This document shows positions 2,860-60,277 of a stretch of 64,000 nt of DNA, in pieces. Below the pieces are notes generated by a model, which was given only the letters and a program-made list of their open reading frames with translations, did not search any database and had not been told where the DNA came from. Made by a program: the position numbers and the translations under genes. The stretch lies in NCBI RefSeq assembly GCF_002854065.1, contig NZ_CP024153.1; one strand, 5' to 3'. The DNA comes from Escherichia coli (GTDB lineage: Bacteria; Pseudomonadota; Gammaproteobacteria; Enterobacterales; Enterobacteriaceae). How positions within the stretch are numbered: position 1 is the stretch's first letter; each line of letters starts with the position of its first letter.

Positions 2860-3140
2860 AATTCTGCATACGCTCAATGCCTGCAAAATCACCTCCCCTA
2901 GGGGTTATCCACTTATCCACGGGGATATTTTTATAAGATCTTTTTAAATAGTTGTTAGATCTTTATTTTTAGAATGCCCACAGGCCTTTATCCATGCGGG
3001 TTCCAGAGAGGGATCTGTGACAAAACGCCCTTTCAGTGTGACAAATCACCCTCAAATAGCCGCCCTTTCTGTGACAAGTTGCCCTTAACCCTGTGACAAA
3101 TTGCCCTCAGGAAGCGTTGCTTTTCACAAAGTTATCCATC
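2860..3140. promoter_or_regulatory. ori2-like origin of RepFIA: DnaA boxes, AT-rich stretch, 19-bp iterons
   Basis: ttatccacttatccac DnaA boxes, AT-rich run, then tgtgacaaatcaccctc / tgtgacaagttgccc / tgtgacaaattgccctc direct repeats upstream of repE. Confidence 0.8.
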
Positions 3141-3148
3141 CCTGTTGA

Positions 3149-3961
<813 letters not shown>

Positions 3962-12341: not shown

Positions 12342-15035
<2,694 letters not shown>

Positions 15036-17678: not shown

Positions 17679-18498
17679 GGCACTGTTGCAAATAGTCGGT
17701 GGTGATAAACTTATCATCCCCTTTTGCTGATGGAGCTGCACATGAACCCATTCAAAGGCCGGCATTTTCAGCGTGACATCATTCTGTGGGCCGTACGCTG
17801 GTACTGCAAATACGGCATCAGTTACCGTGAGCTGCAGGAGATGCTGGCTGAACGCGGAGTGAATGTCGATCACTCCACGATTTACCGCTGGGTTCAGCGT
17901 TATGCGCCTGAAATGGAAAAACGGCTGCGCTGGTACTGGCGTAACCCTTCCGATCTTTGCCCGTGGCACATGGATGAAACCTACGTGAAGGTCAATGGCC
18001 GCTGGGCGTATCTGTACCGGGCCGTCGACAGCCGGGGCCGCACTGTCGATTTTTATCTCTCCTCCCGTCGTAACAGCAAAGCTGCATACCGGTTTCTGGG
18101 TAAAATCCTCAACAACGTGAAGAAGTGGCAGATCCCGCGATTCATCAACACGGATAAAGCGCCCGCCTATGGTCGCGCGCTTGCTCTGCTCAAACGCGAA
18201 GGCCGGTGCCCGTCTGACGTTGAACACCGACAGATTAAGTACCGGAACAACGTGATTGAATGCGATCATGGCAAACTGAAACGGATAATCGGCGCCACGC
18301 TGGGATTTAAATCCATGAAGACGGCTTACGCCACCATCAAAGGTATTGAGGTGATGCGTGCACTACGCAAAGGCCAGGCCTCAGCATTTTATTATGGTGA
18401 TCCCCTGGGCGAAATGCGCCTGGTAAGCAGAGTTTTTGAAATGTAAGGCCTTTGAATAAGACAAAAGGCTGCCTCATCGCTAACTTTGCAACAGTGCC
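17679..18498 (+). mobile_element. IS26 copy A
   Basis: 820 bp, 14-bp IRs ggcactgttgcaaa; tnp26 17742-18446 (234 aa, G at residue 184). Confidence 0.95.
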
Positions 18499-20050: not shown

Positions 20051-20518
20051 CAGGCAGATATTTGTTTGCAAAATATACAAATGAAGTTTGGACCCATAAT
20101 CTTCTTGCTTTGGTGTAGGTATAATACCCAAAAACGAAGTTTATGCGGAACAGGATAACACCTCGAAATCGGAGTTTATATGGCTTCGTGGGGGAGTTAT
20201 GTGTTTGAGCTTTGTCGCATTAACGCGAATCAGGGGTTGACGGCAGAAATAGACTGGAATTACACTTCTTGGAGTCGGCGTTGCCGGAAAATTCTGATTG
20301 GATTAGTTGTTCGGGGTGCGAAAACAGTCGTAGTTCGGGGAAAAAACCGAATTTTGACCCAAAACCGCGAAAAACTCGAAATGACAGTTCCTATCAGTTT
20401 TCATAATGAATTAAAACAAAAAAATTAGGCTGCAAAGATAGGGAAAATGTGTCAATTTGCGTAAGTGATAATTAGTCAATTAAGATAAATGCTACTTTTG
20501 TAATCAAAGCAAAATGAT

Positions 20519-26942: not shown

Positions 26943-26980
26943 GGGGAGCCCGCAGAATTCGGAAAAAATCGTACGCTAAG
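26943..26980 (+). repeat. Tn1721 38-bp terminal IR
   Basis: ggggagcccgcagaattcggaaaaaatcgtacgctaag; contains the tnpA stop codon. Confidence 0.9.
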
Positions 26981-28790
26981 GTTTTCCGGGCATCCGTAAG
27001 GGCCGAAACTTCCCGTCTTCCAGTCTGCGGCTCTGCCGCCAGACGTAATCGCCGGTTAGGTTGATGTGCTCCCAGCCCAGCGGCGACAGGAATTGCAGCA
27101 GCTCGCCGTCCACCGGCTTGCCGGCCTCGACCAACCCCTGGGTGGCGCGTTCCAGGTACACCGTGTTCCACAGCACGATAGCCGCCGTCACCAGGTTGAG
27201 GCCGCTGGCCCGGTAGCGCTGCTGCTCGAAGCTCCGATCCCTGATTTCCCCAAGGCGGTTGAAGAACACCGCCCTGGCCAGCGAGTTGCGCGCCTCACCT
27301 TTGTTCAGGCCGGCATGCACGCGGCGGCGCAGTTCAACACTTTGCAGCCAGTCCAGGATGAACAGCGTGCGCTCGATCCGGCCCAGCTCGCGCAGGGCCA
27401 CGGCCAGTCCGTTCTGGCGCGGGTAGCTGCCGAGCTTGCGCAGCATCAGCGAGGCGGTGACGGTGCCCTGCTTGATCGAGCTGGCCAGGCGCAGGATGTC
27501 GTCCCAGTGGGCACGCACGTGCTTGATGTTCAGGGTGCCGCCGATCAGCGGGCGCAACGTCGGGTAGGCTTGCACGCCCTGCGGCACGTACAGCTTGGTT
27601 TCGCCGAGGTCGCGGATGCGCGGCGCGAAGCGGAAGCCTAGCAGGTGCATCAGGGCAAAGACGTGATCGGTGAAGCCGGCCGTGTCGGTGTAGTGCTCCT
27701 CGATCCGCAGGTCGGACTCGTGGTACAGCAGGCCGTCGAGCACATAGGTGGAATCGCGGACGCCGACATTCACCACGCGGGTGCTGAACGGCGCGTACTG
27801 GTCGGAGATATGGGTATAGAACAGCCGTCCCGGCTCGCTACCGTACTTCGGGTTGACGTGCCCGGTGCTCTCGCCCCGGCCACCCGCGCGGAAGCGCTGG
27901 CCATCGGAGGATGAGGTCGTGCCGTCGCCCCAGTGGGCGGCAAAGGCGTGGCGATACTGGTGGTTGACCAGCTCGGCCAAGGCCGCCGAATAGGTTTCGT
28001 CGCGGATGTGCCAGGCTTGCAGCCAGGACAGCTTGGCGTAGGTCAGGCCGGGGCTCGACTCGGCCATCTTGGTCAGCCCGAGGTTGATCGCATCACCGAG
28101 GATTGCGGACAGCAGCAACGTCCTGTCTTTGGCCTCGGCCCCGTCCTTCAAGTGGGTGAAGTGGCGGCTGAAGCCCGTCCAGTCGTCCACGTCCATCAGC
28201 AGTTCGGTGATCTTGATGCGCGGCAGTAACTGGCTGGTTTGGTCGATCAGCGCCTGCGCCCGATCCGGCACCGCCGCATCCAGCGGGGTGATTTTCAGCC
28301 CTGACTCGGTGAGGATGGCATCGGGCAGCTCGTTGTCCTTGGCCAGGCGGGTGACGGTGGCCAACTGCTCGTCCAGCAGCTGCAAACGCTCTTCCAGGTA
28401 CTGGTCGCTGTTCGGGTTGATCGCCAGGGGCAGGGCCTGCTCGCGCTTGAGTGCGGCGAACTTCTCGGCCGGCAGCAGGTAGTCGTCGAAGTCGCGGAAC
28501 TGCCGCGAGCCCTTGACCCAGATGTCGCCGGAGCGCAGGGCGTTCTTCAGCTCGGACAGGGCGCAGATTTCGTAGAATTTCCGGTCGAGGCCTTCCGGGG
28601 TGATCACCAGCGGCTTCCAGCGCGGCTTGATGAAGGCCGTGGGTGCATCGGCCGGCACCTTGCGCAGGTTGTCGGCGTTCATCTCACGCAGGGTCTGCAC
28701 GGCTGCCAGCACGCCTTGCGCGGCCGGCCCGTGCTGTTCCCCAACTTTTCGCTCGGCGAAGTGTATGAACATGCGCCGCCGGCGACGAAT
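26976..28790 (-). pseudogene. tnpA: Tn1721 tnpA 3' portion (the duplicated transposase end of the tet module)
   Basis: Tn3-family TnpA C-terminal about 590 aa ending ...RMPGKP at the IR; 5' extent uncertain. Confidence 0.8.
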
Positions 28791-30176: not shown

Positions 30177-31376
30177 TCAGCGATCGGCTCGTTGCCCTGC
30201 GCCGCTCCAAAGCCCGCGACGCAGCGCCGGCAGGCAGAGCAAGTAGAGGGCAGCGCCTGCAATCCATGCCCACCCGTTCCACGTTGTTATAGAAGCCGCA
30301 TAGATCGCCGTGAAGAGGAGGGGTCCGACGATCGAGGTCAGGCTGGTGAGCGCCGCCAGTGAGCCTTGCAGCTGCCCCTGACGTTCCTCATCCACCTGCC
30401 TGGACAACATTGCTTGCAGCGCCGGCATTCCGATGCCACCCGAAGCAAGCAGGACCATGATCGGGAACGCCATCCATCCCCGTGTCGCGAAGGCAAGCAG
30501 GATGTAGCCTGTGCCGTCGGCAATCATTCCGAGCATGAGTGCCCGCCTTTCGCCGAGCCGGGCGGCTACAGGGCCGGTGATCATTGCCTGGGCGAGTGAA
30601 TGCAGAATGCCAAATGCGGCAAGCGAAATGCCGATCGTGGTCGCGTCCCAGTGAAAGCGATCCTCGCCGAAAATGACCCAAAGCGCGGCCGGCACCTGTC
30701 CGACAAGTTGCATGATGAAGAAGACCGCCATCAGGGCGGCGACGACGGTCATGCCCCGGGCCCACCGGAACGAAGCGAGCGGGTTGAGAGCCTCCCGGCG
30801 TAACGGCCGGCGTTCGCCTTTGTGCGACTCCGGCAAAAGGAAACAGCCCGTCAGGAAATTGAGGCCGTTCAAGGCTGCCGCGGCGAAGAACGGAGCGTGG
30901 GGGGAGAAACCGCCCATCAGCCCACCGAGCACAGGTCCCGCGACCATCCCGAACCCGAAACAGGCGCTCATGAAGCCGAAGTGCCGCGCGCGCTCATCGC
31001 CATCAGTGATATCGGCAATATAAGCGCCGGCTACCGCCCCAGTCGCCCCGGTGATGCCGGCCACGATCCGCCCGATATAGAGAACCCAAAGGAAAGGCGT
31101 CGTCGCCATGATGGCGTAGTCGACAGCAGCGCCGGCCAGCGAGACGAGCAAGACCGGCCGCCGCCCGAAACGATCCGACAGCGCGCCCAGCACAGGTGCG
31201 CAGGCAAATTGCATCAACGCATACAGCGCCAGCAGAATGCCATAGTGGGCGGTGACGTCGTTCGAGTGAACCAGATCGCGCAGGAGGCCCGGCAGCACCG
31301 GCATAATCAGGCCGATGCCGACAGCGTCGAGCGCGACAGTGCTCAGAATTACGATCAGGGGTCTGTTGGGTTTCAC
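30177..31376 (-). CDS. tet(A): TetA(A) tetracycline efflux MFS pump
   Basis: (V)KPNRPLIVILSTVALDAVGIGLIMPVLPGLLRD...; 399 aa from GTG; divergent from tetR. Confidence 0.95.
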   Translation of the reverse strand: MKPNRPLIVILSTVALDAVGIGLIMPVLPGLLRDLVHSNDVTAHYGILLALYALMQFACAPVLGALSDRFGRRPVLLVSLAGAAVDYAIMATTPFLWVLYIGRIVAGITGATGAVAGAYIADITDGDERARHFGFMSACFGFGMVAGPVLGGLMGGFSPHAPFFAAAALNGLNFLTGCFLLPESHKGERRPLRREALNPLASFRWARGMTVVAALMAVFFIMQLVGQVPAALWVIFGEDRFHWDATTIGISLAAFGILHSLAQAMITGPVAARLGERRALMLGMIADGTGYILLAFATRGWMAFPIMVLLASGGIGMPALQAMLSRQVDEERQGQLQGSLAALTSLTSIVGPLLFTAIYAASITTWNGWAWIAGAALYLLCLPALRRGLWSGAGQRADR

Positions 31377-31399
31377 GTCTGGCCTCCGGACCAGCCTCC

Positions 31400-31481
31400 G
31401 CTGGTCCGATTGAACGCGCGGATTCTTTATCACTGATAAGTTGGTGGACATATTATGTTTATCAGTGATAAAGTGTCAAGC
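31400..31481. promoter_or_regulatory. tetA/tetR divergent promoter with tet operators
   Basis: Palindromic ctttatcactgataag and tttatcagtgataaag TetR operator sequences. Confidence 0.8.
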
Positions 31482-32132
31482 ATGACAAAGTTGCAGCCGA
31501 ATACAGTGATCCGTGCCGCCCTGGACCTGTTGAACGAGGTCGGCGTAGACGGTCTGACGACACGCAAACTGGCGGAACGGTTGGGGGTTCAGCAGCCGGC
31601 GCTTTACTGGCACTTCAGGAACAAGCGGGCGCTGCTCGACGCACTGGCCGAAGCCATGCTGGCGGAGAATCATACGCATTCGGTGCCGAGAGCCGACGAC
31701 GACTGGCGCTCATTTCTGATCGGGAATGCCCGCAGCTTCAGGCAGGCGCTGCTCGCCTACCGCGATGGCGCGCGCATCCATGCCGGCACGCGACCGGGCG
31801 CACCGCAGATGGAAACGGCCGACGCGCAGCTTCGCTTCCTCTGCGAGGCGGGTTTTTCGGCCGGGGACGCCGTCAATGCGCTGATGACAATCAGCTACTT
31901 CACTGTTGGGGCCGTGCTTGAGGAGCAGGCCGGCGACAGCGATGCCGGCGAGCGCGGCGGCACCGTTGAACAGGCTCCGCTCTCGCCGCTGTTGCGGGCC
32001 GCGATAGACGCCTTCGACGAAGCCGATCCGGACGCAGCGTTCGAGCAGGGACTCGCGGTGATTGTCGATGGATTGGCGAAAAGGAGGCTCGTTGTCAGGA
32101 ACGTTGAAGGACCGAGAAAGGGTGACGATTGA
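31482..32132 (+). CDS. tetR(A): TetR(A) repressor
   Basis: MTKLQPNTVIRAALDLLNEVGVDGLTTRKLAERLGVQQPALYWHF...; 216 aa. Confidence 0.95.
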   Translation: MTKLQPNTVIRAALDLLNEVGVDGLTTRKLAERLGVQQPALYWHFRNKRALLDALAEAMLAENHTHSVPRADDDWRSFLIGNARSFRQALLAYRDGARIHAGTRPGAPQMETADAQLRFLCEAGFSAGDAVNALMTISYFTVGAVLEEQAGDSDAGERGGTVEQAPLSPLLRAAIDAFDEADPDAAFEQGLAVIVDGLAKRRLVVRNVEGPRKGDD

Positions 32133-32430
32133 TCAGGACCGCTGCCGGAGCGCAACCCACTCACTACAGCAGAGCCATGTAGACAACATCCCCTCCCCCT
32201 TTCCACCGCGTCAGACGCCCGTAGCAGCCCGCTACGGGCTTTTTCATGCCCTGCCCTAGCGTCCAAGCCTCACGGCCGCGCTCGGCCTCTCTGGCGGCCT
32301 TCTGGCGCTCCTGCTGCGGCGTCCGCTCGTGGGCCGTGGCGCGGGTCCGCGCGCCGGCCTCGTGCGCCTGGCGCTCGCGGGCGAGGTCCAGGGCGGCCGT
32401 CTTCACGTTCTGCCTTGCGCAGATGAGATA

Positions 32431-32468
32431 GGGGAGCCCGCAGAATTCGGAAAAAATCGTACGCTAAG
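32431..32468 (+). repeat. Tn1721 38-bp terminal IR (second copy)
   Basis: Identical to 26943-26980. Confidence 0.9.
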
Positions 32469-33980
32469 GTTTTCCGGGCATCCGTAAGGGCCGAAACTTC
32501 CCGTCTTCCAGTCTGCGGCTCTGCCGCCAGACGTAATCGCCGGTTAGGTTGATGTGCTCCCAGCCCAGCGGCGACAGGAATTGCAGCAGCTCGCCGTCCA
32601 CCGGCTTGCCGGCCTCGACCAACCCCTGGGTGGCGCGTTCCAGGTACACCGTGTTCCACAGCACGATAGCCGCCGTCACCAGGTTGAGGCCGCTGGCCCG
32701 GTAGCGCTGCTGCTCGAAGCTCCGATCCCTGATTTCCCCAAGGCGGTTGAAGAACACCGCCCTGGCCAGCGAGTTGCGCGCCTCACCTTTGTTCAGGCCG
32801 GCATGCACGCGGCGGCGCAGTTCAACACTTTGCAGCCAGTCCAGGATGAACAGCGTGCGCTCGATCCGGCCCAGCTCGCGCAGGGCCACGGCCAGTCCGT
32901 TCTGGCGCGGGTAGCTGCCGAGCTTGCGCAGCATCAGCGAGGCGGTGACGGTGCCCTGCTTGATCGAGCTGGCCAGGCGCAGGATGTCGTCCCAGTGGGC
33001 ACGCACGTGCTTGATGTTCAGGGTGCCGCCGATCAGCGGGCGCAACGTCGGGTAGGCTTGCACGCCCTGCGGCACGTACAGCTTGGTTTCGCCGAGGTCG
33101 CGGATGCGCGGCGCGAAGCGGAAGCCTAGCAGGTGCATCAGGGCAAAGACGTGATCGGTGAAGCCGGCCGTGTCGGTGTAGTGCTCCTCGATCCGCAGGT
33201 CGGACTCGTGGTACAGCAGGCCGTCGAGCACATAGGTGGAATCGCGGACGCCGACATTCACCACGCGGGTGCTGAACGGCGCGTACTGGTCGGAGATATG
33301 GGTATAGAACAGCCGTCCCGGCTCGCTACCGTACTTCGGGTTGACGTGCCCGGTGCTCTCGCCCCGGCCACCCGCGCGGAAGCGCTGGCCATCGGAGGAT
33401 GAGGTCGTGCCGTCGCCCCAGTGGGCGGCAAAGGCGTGGCGATACTGGTGGTTGACCAGCTCGGCCAAGGCCGCCGAATAGGTTTCGTCGCGGATGTGCC
33501 AGGCTTGCAGCCAGGACAGCTTGGCGTAGGTCAGGCCGGGGCTCGACTCGGCCATCTTGGTCAGCCCGAGGTTGATCGCATCACCGAGGATTGCGGACAG
33601 CAGCAACGTCCTGTCTTTGGCCTCGGCCCCGTCCTTCAAGTGGGTGAAGTGGCGGCTGAAGCCCGTCCAGTCGTCCACGTCCATCAGCAGTTCGGTGATC
33701 TTGATGCGCGGCAGTAACTGGCTGGTTTGGTCGATCAGCGCCTGCGCCCGATCCGGCACCGCCGCATCCAGCGGGGTGATTTTCAGCCCTGACTCGGTGA
33801 GGATGGCATCGGGCAGCTCGTTGTCCTTGGCCAGGCGGGTGACGGTGGCCAACTGCTCGTCCAGCAGCTGCAAACGCTCTTCCAGGTACTGGTCGCTGTT
33901 CGGGTTGATCGCCAGGGGCAGGGCCTGCTCGCGCTTGAGTGCGGCGAACTTCTCGGCCGGCAGCAGGTAGTCGTCGAAGT
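32464..33980 (-). pseudogene. tnpA: Tn1721 tnpA, 5'-truncated by IS26
   Basis: Identical to 26976-28490 region; frame fuses to the IS26 left IR at 33981. Confidence 0.85.
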
Positions 33981-34800
33981 GGCACTGTTGCAAATAGTCG
34001 GTGGTGATAAACTTATCATCCCCTTTTGCTGATGGAGCTGCACATGAACCCATTCAAAGGCCGGCATTTTCAGCGTGACATCATTCTGTGGGCCGTACGC
34101 TGGTACTGCAAATACGGCATCAGTTACCGTGAGCTGCAGGAGATGCTGGCTGAACGCGGAGTGAATGTCGATCACTCCACGATTTACCGCTGGGTTCAGC
34201 GTTATGCGCCTGAAATGGAAAAACGGCTGCGCTGGTACTGGCGTAACCCTTCCGATCTTTGCCCGTGGCACATGGATGAAACCTACGTGAAGGTCAATGG
34301 CCGCTGGGCGTATCTGTACCGGGCCGTCGACAGCCGGGGCCGCACTGTCGATTTTTATCTCTCCTCCCGTCGTAACAGCAAAGCTGCATACCGGTTTCTG
34401 GGTAAAATCCTCAACAACGTGAAGAAGTGGCAGATCCCGCGATTCATCAACACGGATAAAGCGCCCGCCTATGGTCGCGCGCTTGCTCTGCTCAAACGCG
34501 AAGGCCGGTGCCCGTCTGACGTTGAACACCGACAGATTAAGTACCGGAACAACGTGATTGAATGCGATCATGGCAAACTGAAACGGATAATCGGCGCCAC
34601 GCTGGGATTTAAATCCATGAAGACGGCTTACGCCACCATCAAAGGTATTGAGGTGATGCGTGCACTACGCAAAGGCCAGGCCTCAGCATTTTATTATGGT
34701 GATCCCCTGGGCGAAATGCGCCTGGTAAGCAGAGTTTTTGAAATGTAAGGCCTTTGAATAAGACAAAAGGCTGCCTCATCGCTAACTTTGCAACAGTGCC
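33981..34800 (+). mobile_element. IS26 copy B
   Basis: 820 bp; tnp26 34044-34748 (G184). Confidence 0.95.
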
Positions 34801-35254
34801 ATTTTTCCCGATTCGACTTATTCGGGCGCTCCCCTGGCTCAAATGTGATTTCTCCATCCTCAACAGAGATCCCAGCCAGCCCCATGATAGAAAGATCCCC
34901 GGCCATTTCATCGGTGGTGCCGTTGGCGATTGCTGCCATCAGCTTTTCACGACTGGGGAAGCGATCCATCCAACTGATCCGATAGTCATCCGTCATCAGG
35001 CTTTCATATGCTTCCAAGAAGCGCCCGCCCTCAATGGCATAATCCGCCATCTTGTCGCCGGTTCGTGCTCCACCAGGTGCGCCGGTGCTGCTTGGCATTA
35101 GTCCGATAGCTTCCATGAAGTCGGCCCATTCCTTGTTGTGATAGCCACGCCGCCCAGGCTTGCCGAAATGGTGCTGCCATAGGTGGCACATTTCGTGGCA
35201 AAGCGTTTGCATAATTTCTTCGGGGGGGCATACGGCGAAGTAAGCCGGATTCAT
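34801..35254 (-). pseudogene. SprT-like zinc metalloprotease-domain protein, 3'-truncated by IS26
   Basis: MNPAYFAVCPPEEIMQTLCHEMCHLWQHH... HExxH; ORF runs into the IS26 right end without a stop. Confidence 0.6.
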
Positions 35255-35636
35255 GGCGATTTCGTCCGTCCGGGTTCCTTGGGAGTTAACGAACCTCTCC
35301 GGGCTGAAATAGCCATAGGTTTGTTTTTCTCGTTGGAGGTGTAGGAGAGGAATAAAGTTTCATACTAAGCAGTCAAGTAACCCTGTTTGTACCGTTCTAA
35401 ATGATACTCACCCAGAAATAAAGATTCATACTAATTCCTACTACAAAATCTGAGTCACGCTACAACTGAGTAATAAAGTATCATACTGGTTGTCTTGAGC
35501 ATCCACAGATTGATTGGCCCCATTCAAACACGTTTCTGGACAAGAATGAGCTAGAAGTATTGATCTAGCTCTGGTGATTTGAATTAGAAAATGTATTAAT
35601 GTTGTGTATAGTTTATCAGCAGGTATTCGTAAGCAT

Positions 35637-36293
35637 CTAGTCAGGAAAAACAACAATACCCAACGCTTCGAGAAGCTGTTCTTGTTGCCAGCTGGCAATT
35701 TTGATACCTGATGTATCGACTTTTCGAGGATCTAAACCGTCGAGTTCGGCGTGACATAAATTAGCACCCTGTAGGCTAAACTGTCCCCAGACATCTTCAG
35801 AAAAAACACCTCGACTTAAGTCTGACTCTTTCAGTGATGCGCCCGCGAGGTGAGTCCCTATCCAGCGATTTTCAAACAGCTCACATTTTTCTAAACAGAC
35901 CCGCTCCATATTGGCATAAGACAGGTTACATCCAGTAATAAAGGCTGAGCAAAAGTACATACGATTACTCACTTGATTGGCAAAGTTTGCTCGGGAAAAG
36001 TTGGCCCCTTTTAAATCACACTCACGTAACTCAATACCGTAGCAATTGGCGTTACTAAAGTTTGCCATCGCAAGCTGGCATTGTTGGAAACTTGCATCGC
36101 GAAGGTCTGCGACATCAAAATGGCAACCTTCGATATCACCCTGTTCAATGAACTTGCAGTTAATAAATGTCGCATCACGCAAGTTAGCACGTCGAAAATC
36201 GCATCGGATAAAGGTGCAAGCAGTGAAAGTAATATCACTTAGATCTTGATGTGAAAAACTGTGGTGTCGATATGTGTGACGGTAGGTTTCCAT
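35637..36293 (-). CDS. qnrS: QnrS-family pentapeptide-repeat quinolone-resistance protein
   Basis: 218 aa METYRHTYRHHSFSHQDLSDITFTACTFIRCDFRRANLRD...; pentapeptide repeats; allele not determined. Confidence 0.9.
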   Translation of the reverse strand: METYRHTYRHHSFSHQDLSDITFTACTFIRCDFRRANLRDATFINCKFIEQGDIEGCHFDVADLRDASFQQCQLAMANFSNANCYGIELRECDLKGANFSRANFANQVSNRMYFCSAFITGCNLSYANMERVCLEKCELFENRWIGTHLAGASLKESDLSRGVFSEDVWGQFSLQGANLCHAELDGLDPRKVDTSGIKIASWQQEQLLEALGIVVFPD

Positions 36294-36460
36294 GTTGACT
36301 CCTATGATGAACTGGACGCAACACTACCATCAAAGCCACATCACATCACCAAAATAAAAACACTAAAAATCAAGATCTTAAAAACCCTCATTTTGCCTAT
36401 TTTAAGGGGGTAAAATAGCGCCCTGAGCCTCTATGTTAACGTTCAAAGTACGCGGCACCA

Positions 36461-37093
36461 TTGAAAAAAGTTATCCGCTTAAAAAGCCACAGAGAAAAGG
36501 AACCCAATAGATTACTGATGTCCGCCATGTTGGTTTCATCTAGTGCCCTGCTCCGTGTATTGGATTGCACAATCTATAACCATTATGCGGCAGCCTTTTG
36601 GATTGCACAATCCAAAGTTAGGGGAAGCCGACGAGCCAGGGAGCCCCGCGACCTGGTGAGCCTGGCCGAAGGCCAAAAGCCACTGCAAAACCGAAAAATT
36701 TCGTACGTACGAAAAAACATGGGGGGGTTAGAACTAGGGCAGGAAGAAGGTACATTACATAAATTAGCAAGTAGGTTAGGAATTTCATATCCCACCGCCG
36801 TTAGTTGGACTACCGACATAGGAATAAAGCTAAATCGGCAAGGCTATAATAGCCCCTCTCACGACTTTACAAATCTACAATGCCGCCATGCCAGGGAATT
36901 TCTAAAAATGACCAGGGATGATTTCTGCTCGTTATCCAAAGTAAGCAAAACAGCTCTAAGGGAATTTGAATTAGGGAAGGCCAATATCAGGAGAGAGACG
37001 GCTAATAAAATATTGGCCGCTTTTGAGGTGATGGGGATCAGGTTCAATGCTGATGGCACCTTTTCACATGGCCAAAGCACCCCCCGCGATTGA
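36461..37093 (+). CDS. Hypothetical HTH-type protein
   Basis: 210-aa ORF; C-terminal LSKVSKTALREFELGKANIRRETANKILAAFEVMGIRF resembles an XRE-type HTH; true start uncertain. Confidence 0.35.
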   Translation: MKKVIRLKSHREKEPNRLLMSAMLVSSSALLRVLDCTIYNHYAAAFWIAQSKVRGSRRAREPRDLVSLAEGQKPLQNRKISYVRKNMGGLELGQEEGTLHKLASRLGISYPTAVSWTTDIGIKLNRQGYNSPSHDFTNLQCRHAREFLKMTRDDFCSLSKVSKTALREFELGKANIRRETANKILAAFEVMGIRFNADGTFSHGQSTPRD

Positions 37094-37159
37094 CTGCGCA
37101 ACCTGCTTTTTTATGTTAAATGGCAGTGCGAGAAGTGAGCTATGATGCGGCTTTCAGCT

Positions 37160-37343
37160 AGGTATCAGATGGCGACAATCTCGCCAATGCTGCGTTTAAA
37201 GTCGGCCTAGACACACCAAAGTGTTTTGCAACTTCAGCTTTCGTTATCTCTACATCCGACAGCATGGCCCTTGCCTTCCTGGCGTCTTCATCTGACATGG
37301 CCAAGGGTCGCCCACCGCGTCGCCCTCTTGCCCTTGCTGCCTC
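37160..37343 (-). pseudogene. tnpR: Serine recombinase (resolvase) C-terminal fragment, truncated by IS26
   Basis: ...GRRGGRPLAMSDEDARKARAMLSDVEITKAEVAKHFGVSRPTLNAALARL* (C-terminal HTH of a resolvase). Confidence 0.6.
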
Positions 37344-47648: not shown

Positions 47649-48470
47649 GGCACTGTTGCAAAGTTAGCGATGAGGCAGCCTTTTGTCTTATTCAAAGGCC
47701 TTACATTTCAAAAACTCTGCTTACCAGGCGCATTTCGCCCAGGGGATCACCATAATAAAATGCTGAGGCCTGGCCTTTGCGTAGTGCACGCATCACCTCA
47801 ATACCTTTGATGGTGGCGTAAGCCGTCTTCATGGATTTAAATCCCAGCGTGGCGTTGATTATCCGTTTCAGTTTGCCATGATCGCATTCAATCACGTTGT
47901 TCCGGTACTTAATCTGTCGGTGTTCAACGTCAGACGGGCACCGGCCTTCGCGTTTTGAGCAGAGCAAGCGCGCGACCATAGGCGGGCGCTTTATCCGTGT
48001 TGATGAATCGTGGGAATCTGCCACTTCTTCACGTTGTTGAGGATTTTACCCAGAAACCGGTATGCAGCTTTGCTGTTACGACGGGAGGAGAGATAAAAAT
48101 CGACAGTGCGGCCCCGGCTGTCGACGGCCCGGTACAGATACGCCCAGCGGCCATTGACCTTCACGTAGGTTTCATCCATGTGCCACGGGCAAAGATCGGA
48201 AGGGTTACGCCAGTACCAGCGCAGCCGTTTTTCCATTTCAGGCGCATAACGCTGAACCCAGCGGTAAATCGTGGAGTGATCGACATTCACTCCGCGTTCA
48301 GCCAGCATCTCCTGCAGCTCACGGTAACTGATGCCGTATTTGCAGTACCAGCGTACGGCCCACAGAATGATGTCACGCTGAAAATGCCGGCCTTTGAATG
48401 GGTTCATGTGCAGCTCCATCAGCAAAAGGGGATGATAAGTTTATCACCACCGACTATTTGCAACAGTGCC
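47649..48470 (-). mobile_element. IS26 copy E with frameshifted transposase (1-bp insertion); N184 variant
   Basis: tnp split into ORFs 47991-48425 and 47701-48024; extra a in gggaatctgcc versus gggatctgcc in other copies; RIINATLG. Confidence 0.9.
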
Positions 48471-48586
48471 TAAAAATCGACCATACAGAGAGGGAAACCA
48501 CCGGAGTGGTGGGAAAAGCAGAAAGGCTCACGTGGCATAAGGCGTGGACAATGGTATCGACTGGTTTTTCAATTTCCTATACGTGA
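48471..48586 (+). mobile_element. IS1294-like terminal fragment (tnp-distal end only, about 116 bp)
   Basis: Identical to 1495-1610; ends ...cctatacgt followed by gaac. Confidence 0.85.
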
Positions 48587-48673
48587 ACTATTGAAGTAAT
48601 CAATCAAATTTTATAGGCTGATAGCCAAGTAACAACCACCAATGATATGCCAGGTAAAATCAGGGGACGTAAA

Positions 48674-50110
48674 ATGAGTACTCTTGATGTTCAGAAGCTC
48701 AAGGATGATGCCGTCGAATGGGCCTTAACTCATGGTGTTGCTTTCAAGGAATCGTCGTATTCCGCAGTGCATACCCCGTTTACCCTGACACCAACACCTA
48801 TCAGCCGTAAATCCTATCAGTACTTAAAGAATGCAACAGGAATACTCAGCAAATTAATCTATTCAGTTTCTGAGGATCATGATTTTTTGTACTCTGCGAT
48901 TTATCCCATCAAGGCCGGGAATGCCTTCTTTTCAGCCCTCCTGAACATGCATCAACAAATCCATTCATCATCAAGGCATGCTCCTCGATTACCATTACTC
49001 ATTATGCGTAGCGACTTTATGGATGATAATCGTGATGGGTTCAGGCTTATAGAGTTCAATGGTATAGCTGCAGGAATGGGGCCGTTTGGTCAGCGGATAC
49101 ATGATCTGCATCACTATCTACAACGGCAATATCCCGCTGTCTTTTCTGATTTATCGAATCAGGCAACAGGGGCGCTTGTCGACAATCAAGCGATCGAAGG
49201 GTTATCAGCAGCGATTTGTCAGGCAACTTGCAGAATTAAGCAGGAGTTCGGAGACCCCGGCCCTGCCAGGTTCCTGATGATTGTGCAGGAGAATGAAAAT
49301 AATGTGTTTGATCAACACTTGCTTGAGCTCGCCCTCCAGCAAAAAGGAATCGAAACGCATCGCAGGACTTTTCGTGAACTGCATAATCAATTGAGTACAG
49401 GCGCCGACAACAGGCTCATTCTCGAGGGTGTAGGCCCACTTGATACCGTCTACTTACGTGCCGGATATCAGTATTCTGATTATGAAGCATTCAATATCGA
49501 TGAGCAGGAGTGTTGTCAGGCGCTGATGGCGACCCGAGTATTCATTGAGCAGCACCGGGTTGCAGTGAACGCCACAGTTGGCCAGCAACTGGCGACCAGC
49601 AAGCGAGTACAAATGCTGCTCTCGCAATTGGGTTACGACGAGTTTGTCGCATTTGGATTAACACTGCAGGAAGCTAAAATAGCAAAAACGATACTGGGTG
49701 AGATGTTACCCATCAGCCCGGATAGTATCAACCTTGCAAAAGAGTCTCCTTCGGAAACCTGGGTTCTCAAAAATCAGGGTGAAGGCGGGGGGCATTGTCT
49801 GTTTGGTGCGGATATCCTGACAAAACTGACGGAACTCACTCCACAACAATATCAGTCCTGGTCGCTGATGCGCCGTTTACACCCTCAGCCCCGAGCTATG
49901 CCCACCTTGATTGTGCGTAAAGGGGAGTTGCATAAGGTGAATGATTTGATAAGCGAACTTGGAATGTTCTCCGTGCAGACAGATAACAATCCCTCCAGTG
50001 CTGAGCACAGTTTTGCTGGATATCTAATTCGTAGCAAATCAGCTGAATCGACAGAGGGAGGGGTCCATAGTGGACAAGGTGTTTTAGACTCGCTGGTATA
50101 CAGCGATTAG
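48674..50110 (+). CDS. Eukaryotic-type glutathione synthetase homologue (ATP-grasp)
   Basis: MRSDFM, IEFNGIAAGMGPFGQR, VFDQHLLELAL...IETHRRTFREL, YLRAGYQYSDY, WVLKNQGEGGGHCLFG glycine-rich loop; alternative upstream ATG at 48647. Confidence 0.75.
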   Translation: MSTLDVQKLKDDAVEWALTHGVAFKESSYSAVHTPFTLTPTPISRKSYQYLKNATGILSKLIYSVSEDHDFLYSAIYPIKAGNAFFSALLNMHQQIHSSSRHAPRLPLLIMRSDFMDDNRDGFRLIEFNGIAAGMGPFGQRIHDLHHYLQRQYPAVFSDLSNQATGALVDNQAIEGLSAAICQATCRIKQEFGDPGPARFLMIVQENENNVFDQHLLELALQQKGIETHRRTFRELHNQLSTGADNRLILEGVGPLDTVYLRAGYQYSDYEAFNIDEQECCQALMATRVFIEQHRVAVNATVGQQLATSKRVQMLLSQLGYDEFVAFGLTLQEAKIAKTILGEMLPISPDSINLAKESPSETWVLKNQGEGGGHCLFGADILTKLTELTPQQYQSWSLMRRLHPQPRAMPTLIVRKGELHKVNDLISELGMFSVQTDNNPSSAEHSFAGYLIRSKSAESTEGGVHSGQGVLDSLVYSD

Positions 50111-50460
50111 TCCCTTTCAAGGGGGCTGAAATCTGGTTATATGAAAGCATGCGGTAAGTGGTGTTTTAGCCCCAGTGGAGATGATGCTGTTTCTAGACTG
50201 AGTCGTAGTAAGCTAATAATAGTATTATAAATGAAGCCATGAGGGTATTTACAGGGCATATCTTATTAAGGGAACAACAGCAAAAACTGCTGCTATAAGA
50301 GGCTGCACCCAAAGTTCTTCAAGGTTCACATCATCGCTGCTGGGTCGATGCTGTTTCAGTTACGGGTCAATTTTCAATACCATTAGCTGTTCCTGTGACT
50401 ACGGTCATTACGCGCTGTCGACATCAATTTGTACAGCAAACAGTCTTAGCGTGGGATATT

Positions 50461-51787
50461 TAATGAGATGGTCACTCCCTCCTTCCCGGTACTATGCTGA
50501 GGATAGGCTTTCATTCGGAGAACTATCATGGAAAACATTGCGCTCATTGGTATCGATCTGGGTAAAAACTCTTTCCATATTCATTGCCAAGATCGTCGCG
50601 GCAAGGCTGTTTACCGTAAAAAATTTACACGGCCAAAGTTAATCGAATTTTTGGCGACATGCCCCGCTACAACCATCGCAATGGAAGCCTGTGGTGGCTC
50701 TCACTTTATGGCACGCAAGTTGGAAGAGTTGGGGCATTTTCCTAAGCTGATATCACCACAATTTGTCCGTCCATTCGTTAAAAGTAACAAAAACGACTTT
50801 GTCGACGCCGAAGCTATTTGTGAAGCTGCATCGCGTCCGTCTATGCGTTTTGTACAGCCCAGAACTGAATCTCAGCAGGCAATGCGTGCGCTGCATCGTG
50901 TCCGTGAATCCCTGGTTCAGGATAAGGTAAAAACAACCAATCAGATGCATGCTTTTCTGCTGGAATTTGGCATCAGCGTTCCACGAGGAGCTGCCGTTAT
51001 TAGCCGACTGAGTACCCTTCTTGAGGACAATAGTTTGCCTCTATACCTCAGCCAGTTATTGCTGAAATTACAACAGCATTATCACTATCTTGTTGAGCAG
51101 ATTAAAGATTTGGAATCCCAGTTGAAACGAAAGTTGGACGAAGATGAGATTGGACAGCGCTTGCTGAGCATTCCCTGCGTCGGAACACTGACAGCGAGTA
51201 CTATTTCAACTGAGATTGGCGACGGGAAGCAGTACGCCAGCAGTCGTGACTTTGCGGCGGCAACAGGGCTAGTGCCTCGACAGTACAGCACGGGAGGTCG
51301 GACGACATTGCTGGGAATTAGTAAGCGAGGTAACAAAAAGATCCGAACTTTGTTGGTTCAATGTGCCAGGGTATTCATACAAAAACTGGAACACCAGTCT
51401 GGCAAATTGGCCGATTGGGTCAGGGATCTACTGTGTAGGAAAAGCAACTTTGTCGTCACTTGTGCTCTGGCAAACAAGCTGGCCAGAATAGCCTGGGCCC
51501 TAACGGCACGACAGCAAACTTATGTAGCATAACGGCAGAAATACACCGGTTTAAAGAATCACTGATCTGGTTTTGCGAATACTGATATTGATGATACTAA
51601 CGGCCCACCGGCCTGTTGAGGAACCTGTAAAACGGAAAGGCTCATTGAAGCCGTATATTTTCTGGAGGTTCATCAGGCGCGGAACTCATCGAGGCGCGGG
51701 AATAAAATCCCATTCAGACGCCGGATAGATTCAAGCAAGCCAATTTATCGTCAAAATCGGTGTTGCAAAAACGGGAGTGACCATAGA
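50461..51787 (+). mobile_element. IS5075/IS4321-like copy 2, inserted in a Tn3-family 38-bp IR
   Basis: 1327 bp; flanks reconstitute IR ggggtccgcttggaaaacgga|IS|aaatatcccacgctaag; tnp 50528-51532. Confidence 0.85.
50528..51532 (+). CDS. IS110-family transposase (IS5075-type)
   Basis: Identical 334-aa protein to 9655-10659. Confidence 0.85.
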   Translation: MENIALIGIDLGKNSFHIHCQDRRGKAVYRKKFTRPKLIEFLATCPATTIAMEACGGSHFMARKLEELGHFPKLISPQFVRPFVKSNKNDFVDAEAICEAASRPSMRFVQPRTESQQAMRALHRVRESLVQDKVKTTNQMHAFLLEFGISVPRGAAVISRLSTLLEDNSLPLYLSQLLLKLQQHYHYLVEQIKDLESQLKRKLDEDEIGQRLLSIPCVGTLTASTISTEIGDGKQYASSRDFAAATGLVPRQYSTGGRTTLLGISKRGNKKIRTLLVQCARVFIQKLEHQSGKLADWVRDLLCRKSNFVVTCALANKLARIAWALTARQQTYVA

Positions 51788-51919
51788 TTCCGTTTTCCAA
51801 GCGGACCCCGTGCTGTGTGGAAATCCGCCCACCTTGCCGGGCGCCGGTGCTGTGTGGAAATTCGCCCATCTTCATGACAAAAATTTGTCAAATGACAGGC
51901 TCATGTGTGCTGATTTATG

Positions 51920-52601
51920 TCAGACGGGATTTTGCTTATCAATTATTGAGAACAGAAATTTTCCTGAATCATCAATACTATACTTAGCAAGTAAAGGTGT
52001 TTTCTCATTTATCTGCTTGAGAGCAGGATCAAGGAAAGATCGTTTCAACTCTGCCAAGTTCTTCTGTTGGGATTCCGGCAAAAGGAAACGGTCATTTAAC
52101 CAAGCATGAGTAGTAACCCATAAGCCTGAAGATTTGAATTGAGCAAGACTTTCATAAAGGCGGATCGTCCGTGGATTTCGAAGACTGCCACAATCGCGGA
52201 GCGAGTAGGTGGTGAACTGGTTCGTCAGGCCGTAAATGTACCGCAGGAGTTTATGGTTAAATTCGATTTCCCAGATACCACGAGCTGATCGGCTGCCAGC
52301 CTCTGTTAGCCAGGGGCGCGCGACGCAGTCAAAACTCCCTTCTTTCGGGTAAAAGATTACCGCAGAACGGCTTAACTCAAACACGCCTTCTTTAACATCC
52401 TTGATAGCCTGGTTACGGCTTACCTGAAAAATTTGCTGATAGTCAGCCACCTTTACTTTGAAAGTAGAGTCACCGAGTACAGCCATCTCATCATCATCTT
52501 CGCTTACTGAAGCTGTGAAATACGTCTGCATAAGACATAACCAGAGAACGCGCTTTGCTTTTAGCGAGAGGTAGTAAGCAGCTTCGGTAAGCTCGTTAGA
52601 C
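51920..52601 (-). pseudogene. Rep_3-family (RepE-like) replication initiator, 5'-truncated by IS26
   Basis: ...[23 protein letters not shown]... (parallels Rep[22 protein letters not shown]); frame enters IS26 right end. Confidence 0.65.
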
Positions 52602-53421
52602 GGCACTGTTGCAAAGTTAGCGATGAGGCAGCCTTTTGTCTTATTCAAAGGCCTTACATTTCAAAAACTCTGCTTACCAGGCGCATTTCGCCCAGGGGAT
52701 CACCATAATAAAATGCTGAGGCCTGGCCTTTGCGTAGTGCACGCATCACCTCAATACCTTTGATGGTGGCGTAAGCCGTCTTCATGGATTTAAATCCCAG
52801 CGTGGCGTTGATTATCCGTTTCAGTTTGCCATGATCGCATTCAATCACGTTGTTCCGGTACTTAATCTGTCGGTGTTCAACGTCAGACGGGCACCGGCCT
52901 TCGCGTTTGAGCAGAGCAAGCGCGCGACCATAGGCGGGCGCTTTATCCGTGTTGATGAATCGTGGGATCTGCCACTTCTTCACGTTGTTGAGGATTTTAC
53001 CCAGAAACCGGTATGCAGCTTTGCTGTTACGACGGGAGGAGAGATAAAAATCGACAGTGCGGCCCCGGCTGTCGACGGCCCGGTACAGATACGCCCAGCG
53101 GCCATTGACCTTCACGTAGGTTTCATCCATGTGCCACGGGCAAAGATCGGAAGGGTTACGCCAGTACCAGCGCAGCCGTTTTTCCATTTCAGGCGCATAA
53201 CGCTGAACCCAGCGGTAAATCGTGGAGTGATCGACATTCACTCCGCGTTCAGCCAGCATCTCCTGCAGCTCACGGTAACTGATGCCGTATTTGCAGTACC
53301 AGCGTACGGCCCACAGAATGATGTCACGCTGAAAATGCCGGCCTTTGAATGGGTTCATGTGCAGCTCCATCAGCAAAAGGGGATGATAAGTTTATCACCA
53401 CCGACTATTTGCAACAGTGCC
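52602..53421 (-). mobile_element. IS26 copy F (N184 variant)
   Basis: 820 bp; tnp26 52654-53358; RIINATLG. Confidence 0.95.
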
Positions 53422-55183: not shown

Positions 55184-55326
55184 GGCACTGTTGCAAAGTT
55201 AGCGATGAGGCAGCCTTTTGTCTTATTCAAAGGCCTTACATTTCAAAAACTCTGCTTACCAGGCGCATTTCGCCCAGGGGATCACCATAATAAAATGCTG
55301 AGGCCTGGCCTTTGCGTAGTGCACGT
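55184..55326 (-). mobile_element. IS26 fragment (right IR and 3' end of tnp26), cut by IS1294
   Basis: ggcactgttgcaaagttagcg... to ...gcgtagtgcacg then IS1294 end. Confidence 0.85.
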
Positions 55327-57006
55327 ATAGGAAATTGAAAAACCAGTCGATACCATTGTCCACGCCTTATGCCACGTGAGCCTTTCTGCTTTTCCCACCA
55401 CTCCGGTGGTTTCCCTCTCTGTATGGTCGATTTTTATACCGTAACAGGCTGTTTTTTATACTTTCACCGATTCCCGGGCACACTTAGCCTGTGTCAGGCC
55501 GGCATATACCTCAGTAGACTGATATCCCGCGCGTTTTTCTTCAGCCCTGATACATTCAGCCCCGCAATGGCCCGGCGGTATACCATCCGGCAGCCACACA
55601 GCACGCATTCGAACGGGTCACGACTCAGGAACTGTTTCACCATTTGTGCATAGCACACTTTCGCCACTGGTTCCGGTTTATCCATCCCCAGTGCACGGTA
55701 CACCTGCGGCAGCTTCTCTCCACACACACGGTTGGCAAGGAACCCGAAGTACCTCACCATCTTAAAAAACTTCTCCGGGATGTGCTGTTTCAGCCTCGCG
55801 ACCAGCTCACGCTGTGTCAGCGTTTCCGTCGCCGTTTCTCCCGTTTTGTGGTCCAGGTAACGGAAGCTCAGGCTTGCCCCTCCGTTGTAATGAGCCAGTC
55901 GGGAAGCCGCTATTGGTGGCTTCTTCAGATAACGACCCAGGTAGCGTGCCGTATTCCGCCCTCCGGCTGTCTTCTTCGACATGTACACATGCCAGTATTT
56001 TCCGCCGGATTTCAGCACCAGGCTTCTCCACTGTGATTCCGTCGTGATATGTGACAACGACTCCGGCATTGCCATCCCCTCTGACCACGCTTTCAGAAGC
56101 AGCTGCCGCATATTCCACATCCACCGTGAACGCATCGCGTCTTTCAGGAAGCTCAGCTTTTTCCACTGACCATGCTTATTCAGACCTCCACAGGTTACAG
56201 ACACATGTACATGCGGATGCCAGTTGAGACGACGGCCATACGTGTGGATGGCGCAGAAGATACCGGGTTCCAGCCCCCGTTTTCGGGCGGCATACAGCAG
56301 ATTCTCCACCGCCAGACGGCACACGTCATTCAGCAGCCAGCGGTTGCTTTCGAACACCGGCCACAGCGTGTCCGGCAGGGTGAAGACCAGATGTACCCAG
56401 TCGCAGTCAGGAAGACGATTCAGCTGTGTTGCTGTCCACAGGTCTGTGGCCTTCTTTCCGCAGGACGGGCAGGCACGGCTGCCGCATGAGTTGGTCAGGT
56501 ACTTTACGTGCTGACAGTCCGGGTTATCACACCCGAACTCTTTTACACCCAGTATCCGTGTGCCGCAGGCCAGCATTTTGGTGACGGCTTCAACCTCGAT
56601 ATCGCGCAGACCGCCCGCATCCAGGAAGGACGTCCAGCACTGGTTGGCTGTGAACAGACGTTTCAGAGGGCGGGGAGTAAAACCGGACAACATGAGGATG
56701 GATTAAACCCCGGTATCCTGTAGCAGGGTAAGGGCTGCTGTATCGCCACGGCGCTTCAGGATGGAGGTCGTCACCATCGCAGGTGGTGGGTCCATGGGTT
56801 TGAGCATTTTCATCCAGTCCCATTCTCGTTGTGAGAGCTTCTCAGCACCAACAGAGAGCAGAACTGTATCGATACTTTTGCGGGTCAACATAAGGGGATG
56901 AGTCCTTAATAAAACAGGTCCTCAGAGCATACATATTCTGCGGGGCGTGCGGCAACAACAGGACGAACCGGGGCGGTTTTCAATTTGCAGCCGCCAGGCT
57001 GCCGTG
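55327..57006 (-). mobile_element. IS91-family IS (IS1294-like), copy 3; outer boundary approximate
   Basis: Inverted duplicate of 1-1610; outer end assumed near the IS50 junction at about 57006. Confidence 0.75.
55494..56693 (-). CDS. tnpA: IS91-family transposase
   Basis: Identical 399-aa protein to 240-1439. Confidence 0.85.
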   Translation of the reverse strand: MLSGFTPRPLKRLFTANQCWTSFLDAGGLRDIEVEAVTKMLACGTRILGVKEFGCDNPDCQHVKYLTNSCGSRACPSCGKKATDLWTATQLNRLPDCDWVHLVFTLPDTLWPVFESNRWLLNDVCRLAVENLLYAARKRGLEPGIFCAIHTYGRRLNWHPHVHVSVTCGGLNKHGQWKKLSFLKDAMRSRWMWNMRQLLLKAWSEGMAMPESLSHITTESQWRSLVLKSGGKYWHVYMSKKTAGGRNTARYLGRYLKKPPIAASRLAHYNGGASLSFRYLDHKTGETATETLTQRELVARLKQHIPEKFFKMVRYFGFLANRVCGEKLPQVYRALGMDKPEPVAKVCYAQMVKQFLSRDPFECVLCGCRMVYRRAIAGLNVSGLKKNARDISLLRYMPA

Positions 57007-59457: not shown

Positions 59458-60277
59458 GGCACTGTTGCAAATAGTCGGTGGTGATAAACTTATCATCCCC
59501 TTTTGCTGATGGAGCTGCACATGAACCCATTCAAAGGCCGGCATTTTCAGCGTGACATCATTCTGTGGGCCGTACGCTGGTACTGCAAATACGGCATCAG
59601 TTACCGTGAGCTGCAGGAGATGCTGGCTGAACGCGGAGTGAATGTCGATCACTCCACGATTTACCGCTGGGTTCAGCGTTATGCGCCTGAAATGGAAAAA
59701 CGGCTGCGCTGGTACTGGCGTAACCCTTCCGATCTTTGCCCGTGGCACATGGATGAAACCTACGTGAAGGTCAATGGCCGCTGGGCGTATCTGTACCGGG
59801 CCGTCGACAGCCGGGGCCGCACTGTCGATTTTTATCTCTCCTCCCGTCGTAACAGCAAAGCTGCATACCGGTTTCTGGGTAAAATCCTCAACAACGTGAA
59901 GAAGTGGCAGATCCCACGATTCATCAACACGGATAAAGCGCCCGCCTATGGTCGCGCGCTTGCTCTGCTCAAACGCGAAGGCCGGTGCCCGTCTGACGTT
60001 GAACACCGACAGATTAAGTACCGGAACAACGTGATTGAATGCGATCATGGCAAACTGAAACGGATAATCAACGCCACGCTGGGATTTAAATCCATGAAGA
60101 CGGCTTACGCCACCATCAAAGGTATTGAGGTGATGCGTGCACTACGCAAAGGCCAGGCCTCAGCATTTTATTATGGTGATCCCCTGGGCGAAATGCGCCT
60201 GGTAAGCAGAGTTTTTGAAATGTAAGGCCTTTGAATAAGACAAAAGGCTGCCTCATCGCTAACTTTGCAACAGTGCC
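59458..60277 (+). mobile_element. IS26 copy G (N184 variant)
   Basis: 820 bp; tnp26 59521-60225; RIINATLG. Confidence 0.95.

Follow-up and report, generated by a model that had tools for sequence, protein, structure and literature searches.

The minus-strand IS26 copy at positions 47649-48470 of the window, the 64,000-nucleotide stretch of Escherichia coli DNA analysed here, is a complete element of the IS26-v1 (G184N) type with two single-base insertions that are private to this sequence and that break the transposase gene, tnp26. The two extra bases probably reflect errors of the assembly consensus and not mutations. On this reading ~46871-48015 would be a short piece of poorly resolved consensus, for example unpolished long-read or single-read sequence, and the real molecule would carry a normal 820-bp IS26-v1 with a working 234-aa Tnp26. 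The element itself is known, and its defect, if there is one, is of a known kind. Few mobile elements of resistance plasmids have been studied as thoroughly as IS26 and IS26-v1, and direct measurements exist of how frameshifted copies behave. The biological weight of the observation is very small and its practical value lies in annotation: the copy merits a check against the reads before it is labelled a pseudogene, and 46871-48015 is suspect sequence to flag.

The element is bounded by perfect GGCACTGTTGCAAA inverted repeats at 47649-47662 (plus strand) and 48457-48470 (minus strand), which bears out the full IS26 proposed here by the first-pass annotation. The window contains 16 matches to GGCACTGTTGCAAA, compared with 0 expected by chance. 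These define seven complete IS26 copies, starting at 17679, 33981, 37344, 42769, 47649, 52602 and 59458, as well as two remnants, located at 43589-43628 (a 40-bp end) and 55184-55325 (a 142-bp fragment). The length first estimated as 821-822 bp is 822 bp by alignment, compared with 820 bp for each of the six other full copies, and the excess consists of exactly two 1-bp insertions. The features that define the element and its variant type are as follows.

47649..48470, minus strand: complete IS26-v1 copy of 822 bp (alignment to the v1 copies of the window)
48457..48470, minus strand: IRL, the 14-bp terminal inverted repeat at the tnp26-start end, intact (pattern match)
47649..47662, plus strand: IRR, the 14-bp terminal inverted repeat at the tnp26-stop end, intact (pattern match)
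47855..47856, minus strand: AA (TT on the plus strand) at IS positions 613-614, in the G184N codon that marks IS26-v1 (alignment; PMC9412624)
48011: third base diagnostic of IS26-v1 (alignment)

A same-orientation alignment of the seven full copies contains five variable columns, three of which are diagnostic of the variant and two of which are the insertions unique to 47649-48470. IS26-v1 is defined by three nucleotide differences from IS26, two of them giving G184N (PMC9412624), and the corresponding columns in the window are G to A at IS position 459 and GG to AA at 613-614. Four of the full copies are canonical IS26 and three, including 47649-48470, are IS26-v1. This copy has 0 mismatches and 2 gaps against each of the v1 copies at 52602-53421 and 59458-60277, with unbroken identity over the first 454 bp from the tnp26-start end and over the last 306 bp. 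Against the canonical copies of the window it has 3 mismatches and 2 gaps, and its identity to thousands of annotated IS26 is 99.8%. It is like IS26-v1 (named IS15DI in some records) at all 820 canonical positions, including the three diagnostic bases, and has the same 14-bp inverted repeats and gene layout. It differs by the extra bases at 455/456 and within 512-515, which bring the length to 822 bp and break tnp26.

No 8-bp target-site duplication is present at 47649-48470, where the flanks are GAACAAAC and TAAAAATC, and none was found at any of the seven full IS26 copies (0/7). IS26 without such a duplication is usual in resistance regions (PMC9019673) and the duplication is expected only after simple copy-in insertion, so that its absence is no argument against IS26 membership. 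The four canonical copies (17679-18498, 33981-34800, 37344-38163 and 42769-43588) all lie on the plus strand. The three IS26-v1 copies cluster in the right-hand part of the window, where they surround the bleO, gshB, aph(3')-IIa and oqxAB segments.

The two insertions are 60 bp apart within tnp26. Their positions, and those of the two reading frames into which the gene is divided, are given below.

48015..48016: insertion 1, an extra plus-strand A (T when read as tnp26) that changes GGGATCT to GGGAATCT (alignment)
47953..47956: insertion 2, at codon 150/151, where the plus strand has TTTT for TTT (AAAA for AAA when read as tnp26; alignment)
47991..48407, minus strand: N-terminal tnp26 fragment of 138 codons plus stop, with 132 native residues followed by TIHQHG (ORF translation, profile scans)
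47701..48024, minus strand: C-terminal ORF of 107 aa with a GTG start, whose native part is K151-M234 (84 residues, 47704-47955; ORF translation, profile scans)

Insertion 1 is located at IS position 455/456 (codon 131/132), 4 bases from the v1-diagnostic base 48011, and destroys a GATC site. The first-pass annotation had read this difference correctly, with GGGAATCTGCC at 48012-48022 here and GGGATCTGCC in the other copies. All six of the others do share GGGATCTGCC, although they are not the uniform set implied, since the full copies divide into IS26 (four) and IS26-v1 (three, this one included). It counted only one 1-bp insertion, however, and missed the second, the TTT to TTTT change at 47953-47956. 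Its description of the site as a homopolymer region is apt for the T3 run of insertion 2 but not for insertion 1, which is a single A to AA within GATC; the sequence at the insertions is thus only partly homopolymeric.

The net shift produced by both insertions is +2, so that the tnp26 frame is never restored and the gene is split, as had been noted, into two overlapping minus-strand ORFs at 47991..48425 and 47701..48024. The first ORF is 144 aa long from an upstream TTG and 138 aa from the native ATG at 48407, and the 138-aa fragment retains the N-terminal region and the first catalytic Asp only. The 107-aa C-terminal ORF, which overlaps it, holds the catalytic Glu and N184. In Pfam and NCBIfam scans, the 234-aa product of an intact v1 copy matches PF13610 over 4-139 (E 5e-49) and NF033587 over 1-202 (E 4e-83). 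In the frameshifted copy each match breaks in two, covering profile positions 4-56 and 78-139 of PF13610 (the DDE domain) and 1-121 and 144-202 of NF033587; the part of PF13610 absent from the fragments includes the second catalytic Asp. The catalytic residues of Tnp26 have been named D82, D142 and E177 (Harmer et al. 2014, PMC4196232); numbering from the ATG of the 234-aa ORF makes them D78, D138 and E173. The second Asp is encoded between the two insertions, an interval of 18 codons whose frame has no connected start. Because this residue is out of frame, tnp26 as written is predicted to yield 132 native and 6 aberrant residues before a stop and cannot make an active transposase, in agreement with the earlier claim that this copy is unable to supply one.

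The privacy of the insertions was assessed with a 111-bp query spanning both insertion sites, searched against 5,809 complete E. coli records (21,914 IS26 places) and the best 5,000 plasmid records (23,056 places). None of the 5,809 E. coli records or best 5,000 plasmid records matched the 111-bp query at 99% identity or above, all being at or below 98.2%. A best identity of 98.2% means that both insertions are absent from those records, and neither insertion occurs at any of the ~45,000 IS26 places in these more than 10,000 public records. Exact-pattern scans for both insertions together returned 0 matches in genome_contigs and metagenome_contigs, as did scans for insertion 1 alone in genome_contigs and for insertion 2 alone in metagenome_contigs. 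Related plasmids have intact elements at the same junctions. Plasmid p14EC017b shares the dfrA12-aadA2-bleO-IS26 junction and its IS26 copy is intact; over 4,883 bp it differs from the window by 0 substitutions and four single-base indels. The gshB junction is shared by pBY63-1 (L002) and by records L013, L014, L015 and L017, all with 820-bp IS26 copies.

The indels that distinguish the window from p14EC017b are strongly clustered. Matches to six independent plasmids together cover 63.4 kb of the window's 64 kb, with identities of at least 99.6% and above 99.9% in most segments. All 4 of the window's single-base indels fall within 46871-48015 (1,145 bp), whereas the other ~62 kb contains 22 substitutions, 0 single-base indels and one 3-bp gap. 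The clean remainder indicates that the assembly is well polished overall. The surrounding 4.9-kb p14EC017b match contains 0 substitutions. The chance that 4 random positions would lie this close together is ~2.4e-5, or ~1e-3 when the two neighbouring indels are treated as a single event. The density of 3.5 indels per kb in the 1,145-bp patch is of the same order as that of the noisy ECZU25 contig described below. Two of the four indels are the insertions in tnp26, and the other two form a compensated pair upstream in window coordinates.

46871..46875: private -A/+G pair, CCCAAGTGTAG to CCCAGTGGTAG, in unique non-coding DNA (plasmid comparison)

The members of this pair are 4 bp apart and lie just after the PNPOx-family ORF. 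Among plasmids, the best full-length matches to the 46871-46875 sequence reach 98.3%, and 0 of the 466 matches with at least 80% coverage are at 100%. The pair looks like a consensus slip rather than a mutation. The GC content of the patch, considered as a possible cause of poor short-read polishing, is 29-42% in the bleO segment and ~50% in the IS26 part.

A second +1 at the site of insertion 1 is on record in another assembly. The predicted 138-aa product is identical to GHL28925.1, a 'hypothetical protein' from contig BNFS01000003.1 of E. coli ECZU25 (L007). The IS26-v1 copy at 2938-3758 of this contig carries a +1 change, GATCCC to GATCCCC, at the same spot as insertion 1. The two copies differ in that the extra base is a C in ECZU25 and a T here, and the ECZU25 copy has no second insertion, lies in another genomic context and is part of a contig that is indel-rich throughout, with 19 gap openings in 2.7 kb against a reference plasmid. 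Given this richness in gaps, GHL28925.1 is almost certainly an error product. The occurrence of a different +1 at the same site in a noisy consensus suggests that the GATC-plus-C3 site is prone to +1 miscalls. GATC is the recognition sequence of the Dam methylase in E. coli. DNA base modification is reported to induce nanopore read errors (PMC11610603). In pBY63-1, the closest relative for the bleO-IS26-gshB junction, many genes at 30927-38472 and 39019-39725 are annotated as frameshifted, including silB, silA fragments, silP and one IS26, which indicates that indel errors are common in IS26 and neighbouring genes of public plasmid assemblies.

The consequences of a frameshift in tnp26 are known from the experiments of Harmer, Moran and Hall (2014, PMC4196232). 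No cointegrates were detected when a frameshifted IS26 was the only copy. When one of two partners, either one, carried the frameshift, conservative targeted cointegration was ~30-fold lower and IS26 was still preferred; when both did, again no cointegrates were detected. The elements used, IS26-FS-L (a 4-bp duplication at bases 114-117, 30-aa product) and IS26-FS-R (a 13-bp deletion at 624-636, 187-aa product), resemble the copy at 47649-48470 in having intact ends and a tnp26 inactivated by frameshift, and provide a direct experimental model for it. The present copy differs from them in its two mid-gene +1 insertions and 138-aa product, and in that its defect is possibly not real. FS-R and FS-L gave 4.3e-6 and 5.9e-6 cointegrates per transconjugant, respectively, a similarity that argues against any extra dominant-negative effect of truncated Tnp26. 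A natural counterpart is IS26 copy 2 of a chromosomally integrated IncHI2 plasmid in Salmonella (PMC9019673), one among ~ten IS26, in which a single-base indel frameshifts tnp26. That change is a 1-bp deletion at +376, as opposed to two insertions accompanied by signs of a local quality problem.

We infer a technical rather than mutational cause for the two insertions. They are the only differences from the other two v1 copies of the window, they are private, and other plasmids have intact copies at the corresponding junctions. They belong to a group of four single-base indels confined to 1,145 bp without any substitutions, and this group includes the private -1/+1 pair in unique non-coding DNA, 4 bp apart. 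The noisy ECZU25 contig carries its own, different +1 where insertion 1 falls, within a GATC motif, the Dam recognition sequence; base modification is reported to cause errors in nanopore reads (PMC11610603). It counts against a consensus error that the window is otherwise very clean and that a patch made up partly of unique sequence would nevertheless have escaped polishing. Natural IS26 copies with a genuine frameshift are also on record (PMC9019673), a recent real mutation would be private too, and a second hit would be neutral once tnp26 was dead. The first-pass annotation had named sequencing error only as the outcome that would refute its reading; the private insertions, the clustered indels without substitutions and the +1 in a noisy assembly make error the likelier explanation.

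That the insertions are instead real is possible but doubtful. The copy would then be a decayed IS26-v1 that lacks active Tnp26 and could not undergo copy-in transposition by itself. Because both inverted repeats and long identical ends are kept, it would still serve as a less efficient partner when the six intact copies provide Tnp26, and RecA-dependent recombination could also use it. This fits the sequence as given, in an assembly that is otherwise accurate, and there is natural precedent in the IS26 with a 1-bp deletion frameshift (PMC9019673). A frameshifted IS26 remains the preferred target at ~30-fold lower frequency (PMC4196232), and the present copy matches the v1 copies exactly over at least 306 bp at either end. 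However, four indels without substitutions in 1.1 kb, and none elsewhere, are unlike the spread of independent mutations, and the compensated pair at 46871/5 has no selective or mechanistic rationale. The other +1 at this site comes from an error-rich assembly, and the same-junction copies elsewhere are all intact. The earlier suggestion that this copy can act as a recombination target is roughly right in view of the Harmer 2014 frameshift experiments, in which IS26 was still preferred, but it overstated the quality of the target given the ~30-fold drop in cointegration, and it rests on insertions that are probably unreal. If the frameshift is real, one of the two IS26 bounding the dfrA12-aadA2-bleO and gshB-IS4321-rep segments would be inert, and Tnp26-dependent movement of both segments would be modestly less frequent.

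Two further readings give the broken frame a function. It is very improbable that the insertions are real and that the 138-aa fragment, which would comprise the DNA-binding region and a partial catalytic domain, inhibits the six intact IS26 of this replicon in trans by binding IS26 ends without catalysis, so damping the other copies and stabilising the multi-IS26 resistance region. Truncated transposase inhibitors are known in other IS families, and the fragment retains the native start and the entire region upstream of the DDE core. Nevertheless, the allele is private and gives no sign of conservation, the 187-aa FS-R behaved like the 30-aa FS-L (PMC4196232), and every argument for an artefact applies here too. 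Programmed ribosomal frameshifting that restores full-length Tnp26, for which the overlapping ORFs alone speak, has a negligible probability and was rejected, since the net +2 shift arises from two separate sites and two separate +1 corrections 60 nt apart would be required. The other copies, both here and at tens of thousands of public places, encode a single uninterrupted 234-aa ORF. Frameshifting is not known from the IS6/IS26 family.

The copy at 47649-48470 is common to two IS26-bounded segments. The left segment consists of the IS26 at 42769, a truncated intI1, dfrA12, aadA2, the PNPOx-family ORF and bleO. The right segment contains gshB, IS4321 and a truncated rep, and ends at the IS26-v1 at 52602, which is in direct orientation with the 47649-48470 copy. 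The IS26-gshB-IS4321-truncated-rep-IS26 module (47649-53421) recurs on many plasmids and several chromosomes (e.g. L013, L014, L015 and L017), with an intact 820-bp IS26 of either variant at the same gshB junction. On the bleO side, at 47640-47649, the window and p14EC017b are without 53 bp that are present in pBY63-1 (20450-20503) between GGAACAAAC and the IS26 repeat. Most other plasmid matches on this side span ~52 bp beyond the query, consistent with the same extra bases. The absence of the 53 bp is consistent with an IS26-adjacent deletion common to this lineage.

Other parts of the window also show rearrangement at or near IS26 boundaries. The 40-bp IS26 end remnant at 43589-43628 directly follows the full IS26 at 42769-43588, and on either side of the two lies one arm of a perfect inverted duplication, 649 bp long, from the 5' part of intI1 (41947-42595 and 43629-44277). 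The duplication and remnant look like the footprint of an IS26-mediated inversion or double insertion. The 142-bp IS26 fragment at 55184-55325 abuts an IS91-family element at 55323-56932, which has an inverted second copy at 1-1610, where the window begins. A 114-120-bp end piece of the IS91-family element is found at 48471-48590, adjoining the frameshifted IS26, and again at 13627-13745. The tet(A)/TnAs1 region contains a perfect direct repeat of 1,550 bp (26943-28492 and 32431-33980) that ends at an IS26 boundary.
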